This document shows, in pieces, positions 3,611 through 33,031 of a stretch of DNA of 64,000 nucleotides. A program made the position numbers and the translations under genes. The notes under the pieces are model-generated. The model saw only the letters and a list, made by a program, of their open reading frames with translations. It ran no database searches and was not told the origin of the DNA. How positions within the stretch are numbered: the first letter of the stretch is position 1; each line of letters begins with the position of its first letter. Source of the DNA: an uncultured bacterium (GTDB lineage: Bacteria; Patescibacteriota; JABMPQ01; CAVVCK01); assembly GCA_963746775.1 (NCBI GenBank), contig CAVVCK010000001.1:483151-547150 (forward strand), in the 5' to 3' direction.

Positions 3611-4495
3611 ATGAATGAAAAATTAGAGGGTGAATTTATACCTGAAGATCTGGCAATAAGCGATCAGGAAGAGCTAGATCCAGAAAATAAAGAAGAAGAA
3701 ATAACCATAGAAGCAAAATACGAAGGCGAAAATCCTAAGCTTTTTGTAATAGAATTAATCAAAGATGCTCATGTTAAAGGAGTCAAGCTGACTTTCAAGG
3801 AGGTTATGAAACAGATTGAAGAAGCTATACAAGAAAAAGACGAAGGAGAAGAAAAATTCAGCTTCGAGAAAAGCATACAAACTAAATCTGCTGATATTAT
3901 AATTCCCAAAGGAATAACTTTTTCAATTAAAGCCAAGCCTTCTGAAACAATACAGTCGGCAGAAGAACAGCCAGAAGAAGATGATCTCGATTTCGATGAC
4001 GATGATGAGCAAAAAGAGGAAAGAGAATCACAAAGAAAAAAGGACAAAGATGAAAAAGAAGATGATATATTTGAAACAGAATTGATGAAAGTAAGAGATG
4101 CCCTCGAAACCACTGAGGGAACAATCTTAAATCGATCTTTAGAGAAAATAAAAGAAATAGGGAAAAGGTTAGTAAATAAACTAAAGGGCTTGGGAAATAA
4201 TCCATTAGAATCAGAAATTCCTGAACCAGATAATATTCAAACAGATAGCTTAGAATTATTAAGATTTTTAGAAGAAGCAGAAGAAAATGGCAGTAAATTA
4301 ACTAAAAAACTTAAAGAAGACTTTGACATAAACCTTACAAGAAGTCTTGTTCCTAGTGAATATATCCTAGCTTATTTGTATAAAATATATAAAGAGAAGG
4401 GCGTAGAAATACCTGATAAAATACTTAATTCAAGGCGTTCGGGTAGCTCGCCAGATACTTTACAAAAAGCAGTAGATATAGAAAGATTGAAATAA
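3611..4495 (+). CDS. highly acidic (Glu/Asp-rich) hypothetical protein
   Basis: 294-aa ORF with long E/D/K low-complexity stretches and no recognisable domain. Followed by a terminator hairpin. Confidence 0.5.
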   Translation: MNEKLEGEFIPEDLAISDQEELDPENKEEEITIEAKYEGENPKLFVIELIKDAHVKGVKLTFKEVMKQIEEAIQEKDEGEEKFSFEKSIQTKSADIIIPKGITFSIKAKPSETIQSAEEQPEEDDLDFDDDDEQKEERESQRKKDKDEKEDDIFETELMKVRDALETTEGTILNRSLEKIKEIGKRLVNKLKGLGNNPLESEIPEPDNIQTDSLELLRFLEEAEENGSKLTKKLKEDFDINLTRSLVPSEYILAYLYKIYKEKGVEIPDKILNSRRSGSSPDTLQKAVDIERLK

Positions 4496-4507
4496 ATTTT
4501 TACATTA

Positions 4508-4538
4508 CAAAAAAGCGGGTATAAAACCCGCTTTTTAT
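4508..4538. terminator. bidirectional intrinsic terminator hairpin (AAAAGCGGGT-ATAAA-ACCCGCTTTTT)
   Basis: GC stem flanked by an A-run and a T-run, between convergent genes 3611..4495(+) and 4553..5620(-). Confidence 0.55.
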
Positions 4539-9839: not shown

Positions 9840-9931
9840 CCGGTTAGAAATTTTGGTAAATTAGAGATACTGTTAATTAATATTTTGTAATAATCAACAG
9901 TAGAAGCATTACGAACCAATACTTCTAACCG
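9840..9931. repeat. tRNA-5'-abutting hairpin element with terminal inverted repeats, copy 1
   Basis: Left end CCGGTTAGAAATTTTGG and right end CCAATACTTCTAACCG are inverted. Starts at the first base after the tRNA-Gly 5' end. Same TIR family as 11654..11758 and 30591..30690. Confidence 0.6.
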
Positions 9932-10160
9932 AGCACGCCACTTTGTAGAATATATGAAAAAGTAATAAGAAAAAATATCCTTATTACCTTAAGAGTATAA
10001 CAAAAAAAATTAAAAAGAAAAGCTTTTTAGGTGTATAAATAATTAGACCATTTTATTAAGCTTTACCCTAAAAATATAACTAATTTTACCTTTAGGGTAA
10101 AGGAAAACAAGTGAGAAATCACAAGTTTTCAGGAAGGAGCAAGAAAAGTAAAAAGTGCGC

Positions 10161-11654: not shown

Positions 11655-11758
11655 CAGTTAGAAGTTTTGGCAATTGACGTTTATACTATTGTTTCTAGTT
11701 TTACAACAATCAACGGTACAGGTTTTGATTACCAATACTTCTAACTGGCCACCGGCCC
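11654..11758. repeat. tRNA-5'-abutting hairpin element with 17-bp terminal inverted repeats, copy 2
   Basis: CCAGTTAGAAGTTTTGG ... CCAATACTTCTAACTGG is a perfect or near-perfect inversion. The left end overlaps the first base of tRNA-Phe. Confidence 0.65.
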
Positions 11759-30557: not shown

Positions 30558-30590
30558 ATGCTGGGGTTAGATTCTTAAAATATAAGCCCT

Positions 30591-30690
30591 CGGCCAGTTA
30601 GAAGTTTATGTAATAAAAGTATTTTTGCTGTTGTTTTTAAATTAAATTATAAACAACGGTATGTATTAGATTGCACATACTCCTAACTGG
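30591..30690. repeat. tRNA-5'-abutting hairpin element with terminal inverted repeats, copy 3
   Basis: CCAGTTAGAAG ... CTCCTAACTGG. Flanked by GCCCTCGG on the left and GCCCTCGT (tRNA 5' start) on the right, a TSD-like duplication. Confidence 0.55.
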
Positions 30691-30815
30691 CCCTCGTAGT
30701 TCAATGGATAAAACACCAGTCCGGTTATTCGACCAGATAAACCTTCTAAGTTGGTTATGTAGGTTCGCCAGGTCATTCGACCTGGCGCCCAGTCGGATGA
30801 CTGGGCGATTCCTGG
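30690..30815 (+). pseudogene. degenerate tRNA-Arg(TCT)-derived copy with two internal insertions, no 3' acceptor strand, ending in a terminator-like hairpin plus T6
   Basis: Colinear with the intact tRNA-Arg(TCT) at 31095 through the 5' acceptor, D-arm, anticodon loop CTTCTAA and T-stem. Interrupted by a 21-nt and a 40-nt insertion (hairpins CCAGGTCATTCGACCTGG and CGCCCAGTCGGATGACTGGGCG), then TTTTTT. Confidence 0.5.
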
Positions 30816-30831
30816 TTTTTTAATAAAGCAC

Positions 30832-31104
30832 ATGTATTATTTATATATACTTTTGTTAAAAAATAAGCAATTATACAAGGGATCAACTAGTGATTTAAAA
30901 CGAAGATTCAATGAACACAAAAACGGCAAAGTTAAATAAACTAAATACAGAAGACCTTTAAAATTAATACATTATGAAGCATATATATTAAAAAGCGATG
31001 CCGAAAGAAGAGAAAGGTTTTTAAAAACAACAGAAGGAAGAAGATTATTAAAACAACAAATAAAAGATATTCTAAATAAACATAGTAAACATACGCCCTC
31101 GTAG
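30832..31104 (+). pseudogene. GIY-YIG nuclease-family small protein gene interrupted by an in-frame TAA
   Basis: Translation MYYLYILLLKNKQLYKGSTSDLKRRFNEHKNGKVK-stop-TKYRRPLKLIHYEAYILKSDAERRERFLKTTEGRRLLKQQIKDILNKHSKH. GIY ... YIG-family core (YxGST ... RR ... EH ... G). The TAA at 30937 sits where the family has Tyr (TAY). The ORF's 3' end overlaps the first 10 nt of tRNA-Arg. Confidence 0.55.
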
Positions 31105-31166
31105 TTCAATGGACAGAACACCAGCCTTCTAAGCTGGTTATGTAGGTTCGATTCCTGCCGAGGGCA
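31095..31166 (+). tRNA. tRNA-Arg (TCT)
   Basis: GCCCTCGTAGTTCAATGGACAGAACACCAGCCTTCTAAGCTGGTTATGTAGGTTCGATTCCTGCCGAGGGCA folds canonically. Confidence 0.8.
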
Positions 31167-31266
31167 AGTTATTATGTTCTAGTTGTTGTAAATGTCAGAA
31201 CTGTTGTAATTGAAAAAATATTTAAAACATCTATAACAATTAGAATTGTTACAACATTTTATGCAG

Positions 31267-31495: not shown

Positions 31496-31657
31496 ATTCT
31501 TTTAATGATTCTAAAAATACTAATAATTAAAAATAAGCAACCTCTAAAATGGGAAAAGGCGCCATTCATTGAACGTGTACGTTCTCCGAAATGACGCCTT
31601 GAGATGTGCAAATGAGCTTGGGTCGAGTTGACCCGGGATGGGAAAAGAACGGTAGGT

Positions 31658-32920
31658 CTAGAAAAGCTGGTCAAGGATGACTCCCAGTCGGTCGCGATTG
31701 ACCAAACCTTCCTTGACTAGGGTGTTAATGGAAGGAATTACCCTATCAGCCTTTTTTGACCGGCAGATCGGAGCGCCAGCAGTCTCCGGAAGAATAGGAA
31801 CAACTTCCATCTGTCCAAACCGCTGGTTGATCCCCTCGATATCCTCAAGCGACCAGGTGTGACTGGGCTTGCCGGTCATGGCGAACGCGTTAATAGCCCT
31901 GCAGATCATATGCATCATGCACTGTTCTGCCCAGCGTCCGTTACAACCGTCAACCCTCGAACCTGGAATGACCACTTGGCTAGTAGTGTGGCCGAAGCCA
32001 TTGAGGTTCCTCCCCTCGATTCCGAAGTTGATGATCGTCTCCAACACGTAGCTAGTGGCGAGTGGGATCCGCAGGAAGTCTTCAGCCCGGATGATCCGTT
32101 CGCCCGTGAGCATCCAGGTTAGGCGGAGCAGGCTGGGCTGGATCTGTCGAATAAAAGCGGAAACTGCTGGGTCGGGGTGAAAGGCAGCGATACTCTCCAA
32201 CCCAACTCGTGCGGCGTAGACTGCTTCGTTGCCGCGATCCACTTGACAGCCCAACACATGATTGTGCCGATGCGACGCTACCACTAGCGGGTAGGTCAAA
32301 AAACGCGCCCCATTATAGGAACGAACATCAATAAGCTCGGAGTCGTGCATCATAATGCATGCATCCTCGTAGATCGTGCCACGCTCCATCATCGCCTGAA
32401 CGATGGCCAAGCCAACCATGATGGGAATGCCCTTGCCCACAACATTTTGACGCTGAAGACTAAGAAGCTGGAAGAGTTCGGGACTGACGGATTGATCAAG
32501 AACGTGCTGTACATCGATGACCGGAACCTCCCAACGCCTGACCTCAACAACAGCTTCTTCACCAGAACGATCATTTAAAACAATAACGTTTTGGCGCGGA
32601 ATCTGGCAGTCGTTCAACAGGTAGTCCAAAACCTCCCGGGGCACGAATTCGGGCTCACCGCCCTGCTCGTGCATCGGGATCAGAACCACGATTTTGCCAC
32701 TTTGAAGTATATTGTCAACATCTTCTTTCGCCTGGTGGATTCCAACCTCACCAGGATCGTAGAGTCCCGCTTCCATTTCCCGGCAAAACTCGGAGGCAAT
32801 CTTCTCGTTGTCATTACAGAACAGCCGCAAAGCACGCTCTCTGTCCACGCCCCTCGTTCGTTCTTTAGCAGTTTCACCACCAGTCGCACTACCCAGTCCC
32901 ACAGTACCAAACCGTTCCAT
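31658..32920 (-). CDS. mannosyl-3-phosphoglycerate synthase-like (GT55-type) glycosyltransferase encoded in a high-GC island
   Basis: 420 aa. Remembered MpgS blocks: ERFG near the N-terminus; VVLIPMHEQ ... VIVLNDRSGEE (compare VVVPMKNE ... IILVSNSRRE); GKGIPIMVGLAIVQAM (compare GKAEGMVLALLLAAM); TGERIIRAED (compare TGNAGEHAMT). The canonical DAD motif is not obvious. GC is about 52% against a window average near 30%. SD AAGGAGAGG upstream. Confidence 0.5.
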   Translation of the reverse strand: MERFGTVGLGSATGGETAKERTRGVDRERALRLFCNDNEKIASEFCREMEAGLYDPGEVGIHQAKEDVDNILQSGKIVVLIPMHEQGGEPEFVPREVLDYLLNDCQIPRQNVIVLNDRSGEEAVVEVRRWEVPVIDVQHVLDQSVSPELFQLLSLQRQNVVGKGIPIMVGLAIVQAMMERGTIYEDACIMMHDSELIDVRSYNGARFLTYPLVVASHRHNHVLGCQVDRGNEAVYAARVGLESIAAFHPDPAVSAFIRQIQPSLLRLTWMLTGERIIRAEDFLRIPLATSYVLETIINFGIEGRNLNGFGHTTSQVVIPGSRVDGCNGRWAEQCMMHMICRAINAFAMTGKPSHTWSLEDIEGINQRFGQMEVVPILPETAGAPICRSKKADRVIPSINTLVKEGLVNRDRLGVILDQLF

Positions 32921-33031
32921 AGCCTCTCCTTGAGACCCATCGAGTCTCTCGTTCCCCCTTGGTTAATTAAAAAAGGTGCTTTCTGATTCAAAAAAGAAGG
33001 CAAATTTTACCTCCTTTTTCGAATCTAAAAG

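Follow-up and report, generated by a model that had tools for sequence, protein, structure and literature searches.

What would place a small nuclease gene, broken by a stop codon, between two copies of the same tRNA gene, only one of which is intact? The question is raised by a locus in a stretch of 64,000 nucleotides (the window) from an uncultured bacterium of the Patescibacteriota (assembly GCA_963746775.1, contig CAVVCK010000001.1, positions 483,151 to 547,150), where a GIY-YIG-family open reading frame (ORF) lies between an intact tRNA-Arg(TCT) gene and an interrupted upstream copy. With a probability of about 0.72, we read this locus as one copy, now in decay, of a selfish, homing-type cassette inhabiting the tRNA genes of Patescibacteria and of some bacteria of the Planctomycetes–Verrucomicrobia–Chlamydiae (PVC) group. 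The cassette would comprise three parts: a gene for a GIY-YIG nuclease of 85–99 amino acids, a conserved double hairpin, and a replacement copy of the tRNA segment that is displaced. In the window it is one of three insertions stacked at tRNA-Arg(TCT), the others being a 97-nt palindrome that resembles a miniature inverted-repeat transposable element (MITE) and a 22-nt single hairpin (Table 1).

Table 1 Features of the tRNA-Arg(TCT) locus, in window positions
Feature	Coordinates	Strand	Basis
GCCCTCG, left copy of the 7-bp target duplication, identical to tRNA-Arg positions 1–7	30586..30592	+	
97-nt MITE-like palindrome (GCCAGTTAGAAGT...ACTCCTAACTG) at the 5′ end of the probably resident tRNA-Arg	30593..30689	+	arms 83% complementary
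Interrupted, probably resident tRNA-Arg(TCT), positions 1 to ~65, with two insertions; pseudogene	30690..30815	+	alignment to intact gene
Single-hairpin unit, 22 nt, TCCGGTTATTCGACCAGA-TAAA, within the anticodon stem of the pseudo-copy	30720..30741	+	repeat analysis
Double hairpin in the T-loop, after TTCG (tRNA position 57/58)	30766..30807	+	palindrome search
ATTCCTGG, rest of T-loop and 3′ strand of T-stem (positions 58–65; 7/8 match the intact gene), end of the pseudo-copy	30808..30815	+	
T6 run and AT-rich spacer before ATG	30816..30831	+	spacer not conserved among loci
Minimal (UPF0213-type) GIY-YIG nuclease gene, 90 codons, TAA at codon 36 (30937-30939)	30832..31104	+	Pfam PF01541
Intact tRNA-Arg(TCT), functional copy	31095..31166	+	ARAGORN; Rfam tRNA 73 bits

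A GIY-YIG cassette in tRNA genes

The intact tRNA-Arg(TCT), whose coordinates in the first-pass annotation proved right, is called by both ARAGORN and Rfam, as are the tRNA-Ala(GGC) and tRNA-His(GTG) genes that come next. The colinear copy that had been noticed upstream is also confirmed by alignment: its positions 1–30 are 93% identical to the intact gene (two mismatches), positions 31–57 contain one mismatch (the next 26 nt being 96% identical), and it carries two insertions, of 22 nt (30720-30741) and of 40 nt (30768-30807), the latter in the T-loop exactly after TTCG. The acceptor stem of this copy has no 3′ strand. A functional or unusual tRNA is ruled out, as no tRNA is called in it by either ARAGORN or Rfam.

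Relatives of the locus, which we found through the neighbouring DUF3352 protein (54–66% identity), share the gene order dnaA / DUF3352 / DUF3352 / tRNA-Arg / tRNA-Ala / tRNA-His and are polymorphic at the homologous site. Two of them are empty (L090 and L092), with tRNA-Arg beginning 4 and 18 nt past the DUF3352 stop codon and with neither hairpin nor GIY-YIG gene; the L090 site reads TAATATA followed directly by GCCCTCGTAG. A third, L091, has only the MITE-like hairpin, placed directly before an intact tRNA-Arg (TAAATAT GCCCTCG, the hairpin, then GCCCTCGTAG), and the window has both the MITE-like element and the cassette. These uninterrupted sites support the earlier proposal that a cassette integrated into tRNA-Arg. 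The flank 3′ of the intact tRNA in the window is native and is conserved with L088, a further relative in which a 12-nt stub of tRNA-Arg and a second palindrome separate the hairpin from the intact tRNA; the palindrome after this stub is possibly the remnant of a lost cassette.

The arrangement recurs far beyond these relatives. A profile search returned 2771 clusters (at 50% identity) with E ≤ 1e-10, and the 504 close homologs, which bear the name 'GIY-YIG nuclease family protein', come from Patescibacteria, the best of them at 65–86% identity. Our census of 80 loci (labelled L0xx, one genome per species) holds 86 GIY-YIG copies, 66 of which adjoin a tRNA gene on the same strand, with 18 anticodon species represented; the other 20 have no adjoining tRNA, and 8 of these lie at contig ends. 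The commonest architecture is a 5′ tRNA part with a double hairpin, then the GIY-YIG gene, then an intact tRNA. This type A (52 double hairpins upstream of the gene) runs from tRNA position +1 to the loop, followed by the double hairpin, 3–8 nt more, a spacer, the GIY-YIG gene, 1–35 nt and the intact tRNA; type B (26 double hairpins downstream of the gene) consists of an intact tRNA, the GIY-YIG gene, 6–8 nt, the double hairpin and a tRNA part from the loop to the 3′ end. Partial and intact copies belong to the same tRNA species, and across the family the pseudo-copy extends 3–8 nt past the double hairpin, never beyond the stem. The window is a type A locus, its pseudo-copy laid out as in the others, and because the same layout is found in dozens of independent genomes, chance can be excluded as its origin. 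On tRNA-Arg(TCT) itself, L031 is a type A locus with an open reading frame and L046 is of type B.

In the protein tree, tRNA species and the two types are intermixed, which argues for mobility; clustering of proteins by tRNA species, considered as an alternative, is only weak (mean identity 65.6% vs 63.7%). Three units stand in tandem in L033 and two in L074, and L019 and L023 lie on one contig, so that a single genome can hold several cassette lineages. Degeneration and loss are also seen, both as copies with nonsense codons (the window, L050, L077 and L080) and as remnants that have no GIY-YIG gene (L083, L062 and possibly L088). Close homologs in the same type B layout occur in metagenome-assembled genomes (MAGs) labelled Kiritimatiellae, Verrucomicrobiota, Pontiella, Victivallales (on a 1-Mb contig) and Lentisphaerae (L020, L028, L044, L050, L053, L070), which suggests transfer between Patescibacteria and the PVC group or, in some cases, mis-binning.

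The double hairpin occupies a nearly constant context. In about 85% of cases this is T-CG/hp1/CG/hp2/CG-A (left TCG in 65 of 77, middle CG in 66 of 78, right CGA in 66 of 78), where hp1 is a 7-bp stem with the loop ATYC and hp2 is the inverted hp1 unit with the loop GRAT; the window copy reads CG/CCAGGTC-ATTC-GACCTGG/CG/CCCAGTC-GGAT-GACTGGG/CG. Most break sites are T-loops (GGTTCG^A), and anticodon loops are used in tRNA-Ser(CGA), tRNA-Arg(TCG) and tRNA-Arg(CCG); taken together, these define the target as YCG^A in a 7-nt loop. Across 56 distinct double hairpins, 99% of cells are paired and 14 of 16 pairs have changed on both sides, with a covariation score of 0.49 vs 0.14 in shuffles (matched by 0 of 500); the 7-bp stems were selected for pairing, and the two outer pairs, made of the flanking and central dinucleotides, were not so selected and still covary.

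The flanking dinucleotide tracks the target, and the middle one is its reverse complement: loops of the TTCA type have CA/TG/CA as flank, middle and flank (L012, L070, L039), and L086 has TG/CA/TG. Such a 2-nt repeat is consistent with cuts that leave 2-nt 3′ overhangs, as GIY-YIG homing enzymes make. The mixed patterns CG/TG/CA and CG/TG/CG (L046, L037, L061, L079) would be expected if the junction dinucleotides were those of the recipient and the middle dinucleotide that of the donor.

Single hairpin units accompany the double ones. The 22-nt unit in the anticodon stem of the window pseudo-copy is a degenerate copy of the hp1 motif; comparable insertions of 20–25 nt, a hairpin with or without TAAA, occur in the pseudo-copies of L035, L063, L087, L040 and L079, and dead copies across the family are peppered with additional units of about 22 nt, frequently with a TAAA tail. 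Both hairpin-forming insertions of the window pseudo-copy are thus family-typical elements and not random decay. A T6 run at 30816-30821, which a consensus scan flags as terminator-like, bears out one half of the earlier idea that the pseudo-copy ends in a terminator; related loci have no such run, so it is not a conserved feature, and the double hairpin as a generic terminator is set aside for the same reason, the T-run being peculiar to the window locus. No RNA family in Rfam matches the hairpins, and we do not consider them a known RNA family. Strict copies of the double hairpin in the 64 kb are confined to the tRNA-Arg locus, which leaves a dispersed population of the REPIN kind (repetitive extragenic palindromic (REP) doublets forming hairpins) unsupported.

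Some loci depart from the standard motif. L043 (1-110) has at least 4 tandem hp1 units before its double hairpin, a local multiplication of hairpin units; in L005 (3265-3340) the double hairpin is nested in the loop of another hairpin, after GTCG; and L039 (1320-1380) reads hp1-CAGG-hp1-TG-hp2. Two tRNA-Arg(TCT) genes, L092 (3530-3601) and L046 (1407-1478), have the T-loop TCCGATT instead of TTCGATT, with C at the near-universal U55. This U55C change might be a target-site resistance allele, although L083 has a double hairpin inserted after GGTCCG and the altered loop is therefore not fully protective.

Origin of the two tRNA copies

The first-pass annotation had proposed that the 5′ part of the tRNA was duplicated on integration. 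A second 5′ copy is indeed present, while its origin by simple duplication is made less likely by several loci in which the two copies have diverged. In L071, positions 1–57 of a tRNA-Val gene are followed by a double hairpin, 8 nt, 15 nt, an intact tRNA-Val(CAC) of different sequence, the GIY-YIG gene, GGGTTCG, an identical double hairpin and positions 58–76 of the first tRNA-Val. The two halves of this outer gene, 400 nt apart, fold as a perfect cloverleaf, and its acceptor, anticodon and T stems differ from those of the enclosed tRNA-Val by compensated changes. In L084, the pseudo-copy and the intact tRNA differ in the D stem (TCC/GGA vs CAG/CTG), the anticodon stem (CACGC/GCGTG vs CAGTC/GACTG) and the variable arm (GTGCGG/CCGTAC vs GTACCC/GGGTAC), and compensated differences are found also in L064, L008, L056, L078 and L029. 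The partial copy in such diverged loci is a structurally coherent tRNA. The intact tRNA of L084 is moreover a hybrid, in that its G7 pairs with T66 where the A7 of the pseudo-copy would pair perfectly, and the 3′ fragments of L060 and of the second site of L062 come from another allele than the intact tRNA.

The compensated differences and the split tRNA of L071 indicate that the cassette interrupts a resident gene and brings a replacement. Sequence comparison favours a reading in which the upstream copy is what is left of the resident gene after interruption and at least part of the intact copy came with the cassette. If the two are homologous genes of different origin, the sharp end of their similarity at the gene boundaries needs no special mechanism. 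A retro-copy of a mature tRNA was rejected as the source of the partial copies, since CCA is present in 3′ fragments only where the intact gene encodes it, which marks the copies as DNA-derived.

The strongest rival is transposition with a long, structure-defined target duplication, in which the nuclease would make staggered nicks, one in the loop or stem and one where the tRNA gene ends, and fill-in would duplicate positions 1–65 (or 49–76) of the local gene, from which both copies would then derive. In its favour, the copies are 100% identical in many loci (72/72 in L047, 57/57 in L031, 55/55 in L030 and L033, 71/71 in L074), similarity stops 0–1 nt from +1 or 0–4 nt past the 3′ end, and the window copies differ at four positions only, none of them compensated. 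Homing between near-identical alleles, or self-amplification, would however yield identical copies just as readily, and the compensated stem differences in L071, L084, L064, L008, L056, L078 and L029 speak for independent evolution as working tRNAs; neither the hybrid acceptor stem of L084 nor the 3′ fragments of a different allele in L060 and L062 fit a local duplication. We consider this explanation unlikely.

The window itself says less than its relatives. Its pseudo-copy keeps T20, as do L088 and L091, and its intact copy has C20; with T20 as in the relatives and C20 in the working copy, the dead copy is taken as the resident one. Hybrid flanks or co-conversion are seen in L084 and L071 and not in the window, and likewise replacement of a gene part is seen in related loci, the architecture of the window fitting it.

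The GIY-YIG gene, its stop codon and a proposed model of homing

The ORF matches the Pfam GIY-YIG family (PF01541; E = 1.3e-14, 54.6 bits vs a cut-off of 22.6) over profile positions 1–74 of 78; as reported earlier, it is interrupted by a single TAA and its final 10 nt overlap the intact tRNA-Arg. In an alignment of 33 sequences, Y15, G17, R25, H29 and E49 are invariant and Y3 and Y5 nearly so, and all are present in the window ORF; we take the Tyr of 'GIY', the Tyr-x-Gly of 'YIG', and the Arg, His and Glu to have the catalytic roles assigned from I-TevI and UvrC. A profile search of the PDB matched only 1zg2 (1.6e-11) and 1ywl (6.7e-11), both UPF0213 proteins. The gene context of the protein is cellular. 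The NCBIfam model for group I intron endonucleases gave 19.7 bits vs a cut-off of 56. Neither the defence-system nor the phage family libraries searched (PHROG included) contain a matching family, and assignment of the protein to a known family of either kind was rejected.

Many database proteins of this family (P0002, P0004, P0006, P0007, P0073, P0102, P0104 and others) bear artefactual extensions. Their N-terminal extensions are translated upstream tRNA genes, and the odd C-terminal tails GSPGHPTGRPVE of several homologs are the translation of GGTTCG plus double hairpin, as found in the T-loop of the window; the tails are an annotation artefact worth flagging.

The stop codon had been thought to replace a conserved Tyr. 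This is not so: among 84 homologous genes the column at the TAA codes for Ser in 67 (TCA in 36), Phe in 14, Ala in 2 and Tyr in none. A sense codon stands there in 83 of the 84, the frame of the window being the interrupted one, and from the family motif GKVKSTK the change in the window is TCA to TAA, with loss of the Ser. Nothing supports stop read-through, the other possibility raised at first, and reassignment of the stop codon is rejected because the window is filled with long ORFs in the standard code and because of the sense codons in 83 of 84 homologs. Loss of the nuclease to one point mutation, as had been suggested, is by contrast supported, since the sequence beyond the TAA is still conserved and the ORF as a whole is 65–82% identical to intact homologs.

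Only if the TAA arose in sequencing or assembly would the window gene not be a pseudogene; the ORF would then be intact and the cassette active. The stop is single, all 54 codons downstream of it are fully conserved, and TCA, the commonest codon at the site, is one change from TAA, all of which an error would explain. The pseudo-copy shows other signs of age, however, in its 22-nt insertion and four substitutions, and single nonsense codons are borne by about 4% of the other copies; we hold an error to be decidedly unlikely.

A domesticated or regulatory module would be another way to account for the conservation: the GIY-YIG protein and the hairpin-bearing, tRNA-like leader would serve the host, in expression or processing of the tRNA operon or in protection of the tRNA gene, and would not be selfish. 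The protein is unusually conserved (65–86% identity across deep lineages), the gene and the tRNA always lie in the same orientation, which fits co-transcription, and the hairpins are under structural selection. Yet presence is patchy among close relatives, 18 tRNA species are hit, several lineages can coexist in one genome, arrays, nonsense-mutated copies and remnants occur, and the defence and phage family libraries returned no match; such a role is very unlikely. Since tRNA genes are common attachment sites that are left with a duplicated tRNA part, and GIY-YIG genes often lie in group I introns, an integrase-borne island or an intron with a homing endonuclease gene would fit this background in general terms, but both are refuted here, as there is no integrase or other recombinase gene, the GIY-YIG gene is the sole ORF between the two tRNA copies in a unit of about 0.4 kb, Rfam gives no intron or ribozyme match even at E ≤ 10, and the working tRNA is continuous and needs no splicing.

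Under the homing reading, the nuclease would cleave the resident tRNA gene within a 7-nt loop, at Y-CG^A, and leave 2-nt 3′ overhangs; the loop would in most cases be the T-loop (TTCR^A), and in tRNA-Ser(CGA), tRNA-Arg(TCG) and tRNA-Arg(CCG) the anticodon loop. The left broken end (...TTCG) could then pair with the partial copy of the donor, which also ends in ...TTCG just before the double hairpin; repair synthesis would copy the double hairpin, the spacer, the GIY-YIG gene and the donor tRNA, and the new strand would anneal to the right end through tRNA positions 58–76. In the recipient, the native 5′ part would stay upstream, dead, and a working tRNA would be gained downstream (type A), type B being the mirror image. 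A self-cut of the cassette's intact tRNA, repaired from its own pseudo-copy, would add a unit and could yield tandem arrays such as L033 and L074. Campbell-type integration of a circle with a tRNA fragment formally gives both architectures; we rejected it because it adds nothing beyond homing and leaves host-type pseudo-copies with a double hairpin exactly at the break unexplained.

That the enzyme cleaves the empty allele we infer from the constant break at YCG^A, the 2-nt flank repeat that tracks the target, and the precedent of SegB, discussed below. Proposed as well are cutting by a protein of the window type, overhangs of 2 nt, the route of repair and a function for the double hairpin, either as a block to re-cleavage or as a junction template. 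At the window locus, the history may have begun with an empty tRNA-Arg into which the MITE inserted with a 7-bp duplication, a state like that of L091; the cassette would then have homed into the T-loop, the resident 5′ part and the MITE remaining upstream; and decay would have followed, the dead copy acquiring the single-hairpin insertion and the changes G22A and C40T, and the nuclease gene its TAA in place of TCA.

A number of points weigh against this account. The four substitutions between the window copies are uncompensated, and with copies so little different, plain duplication and decay is not distinguishable in the window from an origin as host and donor genes. The protein tree is built from about 81 residues and is poorly resolved, and partial copies with a double hairpin occur that have no GIY-YIG gene (L083, L039 and the second site of L062). 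The protein lacks a DNA-binding domain, in contrast to SegB and I-TevI, and its cutting of loops is a prediction. The intact tRNA beside the cassette keeps the presumed target TTCGA, so that self-cleavage must be tolerated or limited. The model covers spread between homologous tRNA genes and not the capture of new tRNA species; simple microhomology repair would yield a chimeric, dead tRNA; and the role, even the origin, of the hairpin units is left unexplained by homing.

A bolder reading, which we offer tentatively and regard as more probably wrong than right, is that a mobile system of a new kind is made up of the minimal GIY-YIG protein together with the palindromic hairpin units. Instead of using a DNA-binding domain, the domain-only nuclease would read DNA structure, namely hairpin or cruciform loops with YCG^A in tRNA genes. 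Each hairpin unit would serve as a symmetric 'filler' whose 2-nt ends are self-complementary and which enters the break by ligation or copying. This would explain the inverted unit pairs, the reverse-complement middle dinucleotide and the extra units that pile up in dead tRNA copies. If it is true, destroying and replacing the resident tRNA gene would make the host dependent, a form of gene-replacement addiction.

Returning to homing, two known systems come close. SegB, a free-standing GIY-YIG enzyme of T-even phages, recognises GGTTCRANTCC in tRNA genes, cuts many of them and leaves 2-nt 3′ overhangs (PMC2330249), and its nuclease activity drives tandem amplification of tRNA and segB in phage T6 (PMC13096335). 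The GIY-YIG catalytic domain, the location in tRNA clusters and the T-arm target are common to both, and the amplification parallels the arrays of L033 and L074. SegB differs in being phage-encoded, in recognising some 27 bp and in lying between intact tRNA genes with no partial tRNA copy and no double hairpin; the present proteins have 85–99 amino acids and the catalytic domain only, are chromosomal (Patescibacteria and PVC bacteria), use anticodon loops too and are always linked to a double hairpin. Nor do they belong to the Seg family, whose phage-encoded members combine GIY-YIG with a C-terminal DNA-binding region in about 200 amino acids or more.

The second parallel is given by the mobile ORFs (mORFs) of fungal mitochondria (Allomyces atp6; Glomus atp6, atp9, cox2 and nad3), in which an ORF inserts in an essential gene and brings a foreign replacement end; GIY-YIG is found in the atp9 case, the native end survives further downstream in non-functional form, and hybrid genes arise (PMC3630166). 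The replacement logic is the same as in the partial and intact tRNA copies. The mORF hosts are protein-coding mitochondrial genes, with the 3′ terminus alone affected and no hairpin element, whereas the hosts of the cassette are bacterial tRNA genes, with the 5′ or the 3′ part displaced and the break in a loop of RNA structure. By analogy with these systems, the best model would be SegB-like homing into tRNA loops combined with a replacement gene part as in mORFs.

Other comparisons are more distant. GIY-YIG ORFs have been described in insertions of rRNA genes of the candidate phyla radiation (CPR) that are neither group I nor group II introns, often at stem-loops, where they are sparse and were judged 'outside the context of homing' (PMC11270868). 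Compared by description only, they share with the cassette the bacterial group and a structural RNA gene as host, and differ in sitting in rRNA genes with no tRNA link or hairpin motif reported. The closest solved structures by sequence (E ~1e-11) are the UPF0213/YhbQ-type proteins (PDB 1zg2, BH0048, and 1ywl, EF2693), of the same size and single-domain; these structural-genomics proteins are of unknown function and are not known to be associated with tRNA or hairpins. Like REP elements, REPINs with their REP-associated tyrosine transposases (RAYTs), bacterial interspersed mosaic elements (BIMEs) and MITEs, the cassette has short inverted hairpin pairs beside a single nuclease-type gene, and the 97-nt palindrome resembles a MITE. 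RAYTs belong to the HUH enzymes and REPINs are scattered over whole genomes, whereas the cassette hairpin units are confined to cassette loci (this locus alone in the window).

Full-text literature searches, whose coverage is incomplete, returned no description of GIY-YIG cassettes in tRNA loops or of the double hairpin; among what they returned, the report on rRNA-gene insertions (PMC11270868) alone deals with GIY-YIG in CPR bacteria and comes nearest. The free-standing GIY-YIG homing element is a known kind; what is new here is that the enzyme is minimal, that a structured junction motif is conserved, that the replaced host genes are tRNA genes and that the setting is a bacterial chromosome. 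Homing endonuclease genes usually spare the host gene, either within self-splicing introns or inteins or by lying between genes. Carrying a replacement for the broken gene part is a third solution, previously seen in a few mitochondrial protein-coding genes and here in bacteria, on tRNA genes. The scale (2771 clusters, 18 tRNA species, and hosts that include MAGs labelled Verrucomicrobiota, Kiritimatiellae, Lentisphaerae and Victivallales beside Patescibacteria) would mean that tRNA genes of reduced genomes are repeatedly replaced by foreign alleles, which matters for tRNA phylogeny and for the annotation of tRNA fragments. The system also ties a nuclease that consists of its domain alone both to a defined DNA target and to a structured, conserved motif of 38 nt, so that direct in vitro tests of specificity without a binding domain become possible.

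The MITE-like element and neighbouring sequences

The hairpin at the 5′ end of the locus, which had been noticed at the outset, is real: the leader 30575-30830 folds with z = -7.05, far better than shuffles. It is a separate MITE-like insertion, unrelated to and older than the cassette. The 97-nt palindrome sits between two GCCCTCG copies and occupies the identical site in the window, L088 and L091; in L091 the hairpin is flanked on both sides by GCCCTCG, which shows that it inserted there and duplicated a 7-bp target, tRNA positions 1–7. It thus has terminal inverted repeats, a target-site duplication, several copies and no ORF, and no cognate transposase was identified for it. Two further window copies with the ends CAGTTAGAAGT...ACTTCTAACTG lie at ~11655-11749 (tRNA-Phe GAA) and ~9841-9934 (tRNA-Gly GCC), both on the minus strand relative to their tRNAs; each has the same orientation and directly adjoins an intact tRNA at its 5′ end, so that 3 of the 12 tRNAs in the window carry the element; at the tRNA-Phe site, GCCGGTG stands upstream and GCCGGGG in the tRNA. 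A metagenome scan added 10 copies, 3 at tRNA 5′ ends (Ala, Leu, Phe) and 7 elsewhere. Taken together, the copies make up a MITE-like family that favours the 5′ ends of tRNA genes.

Other repeats and a compositional anomaly surround the tRNA cluster. A family of GC-rich palindromes of about 36 nt (e.g., TCCGCCTCTAACGGCGAATCCGCCGTTAGAGGCGGA) is inserted around it in L088 (4474-4509) and L090 (~4473-4510); the L088 member is the palindrome that comes after the 12-nt tRNA-Arg stub. The spacer between tRNA-Arg and tRNA-Ala in the window contains an inverted repeat (31190-31259; 23-nt arms, 74% complementary), and similar spacer sequence occurs in L088. Just downstream of the tRNA-Arg/Ala/His cluster, window positions ~31545-32975 have 42–53% GC (1-kb composition windows) vs about 30% in the genome. 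This island carries one ORF of 420 amino acids on the minus strand (31658-32920), for which Pfam, PHROG, PADLOC and PDB gave no match, and from its appearance beside the tRNA cluster it looks like foreign DNA.

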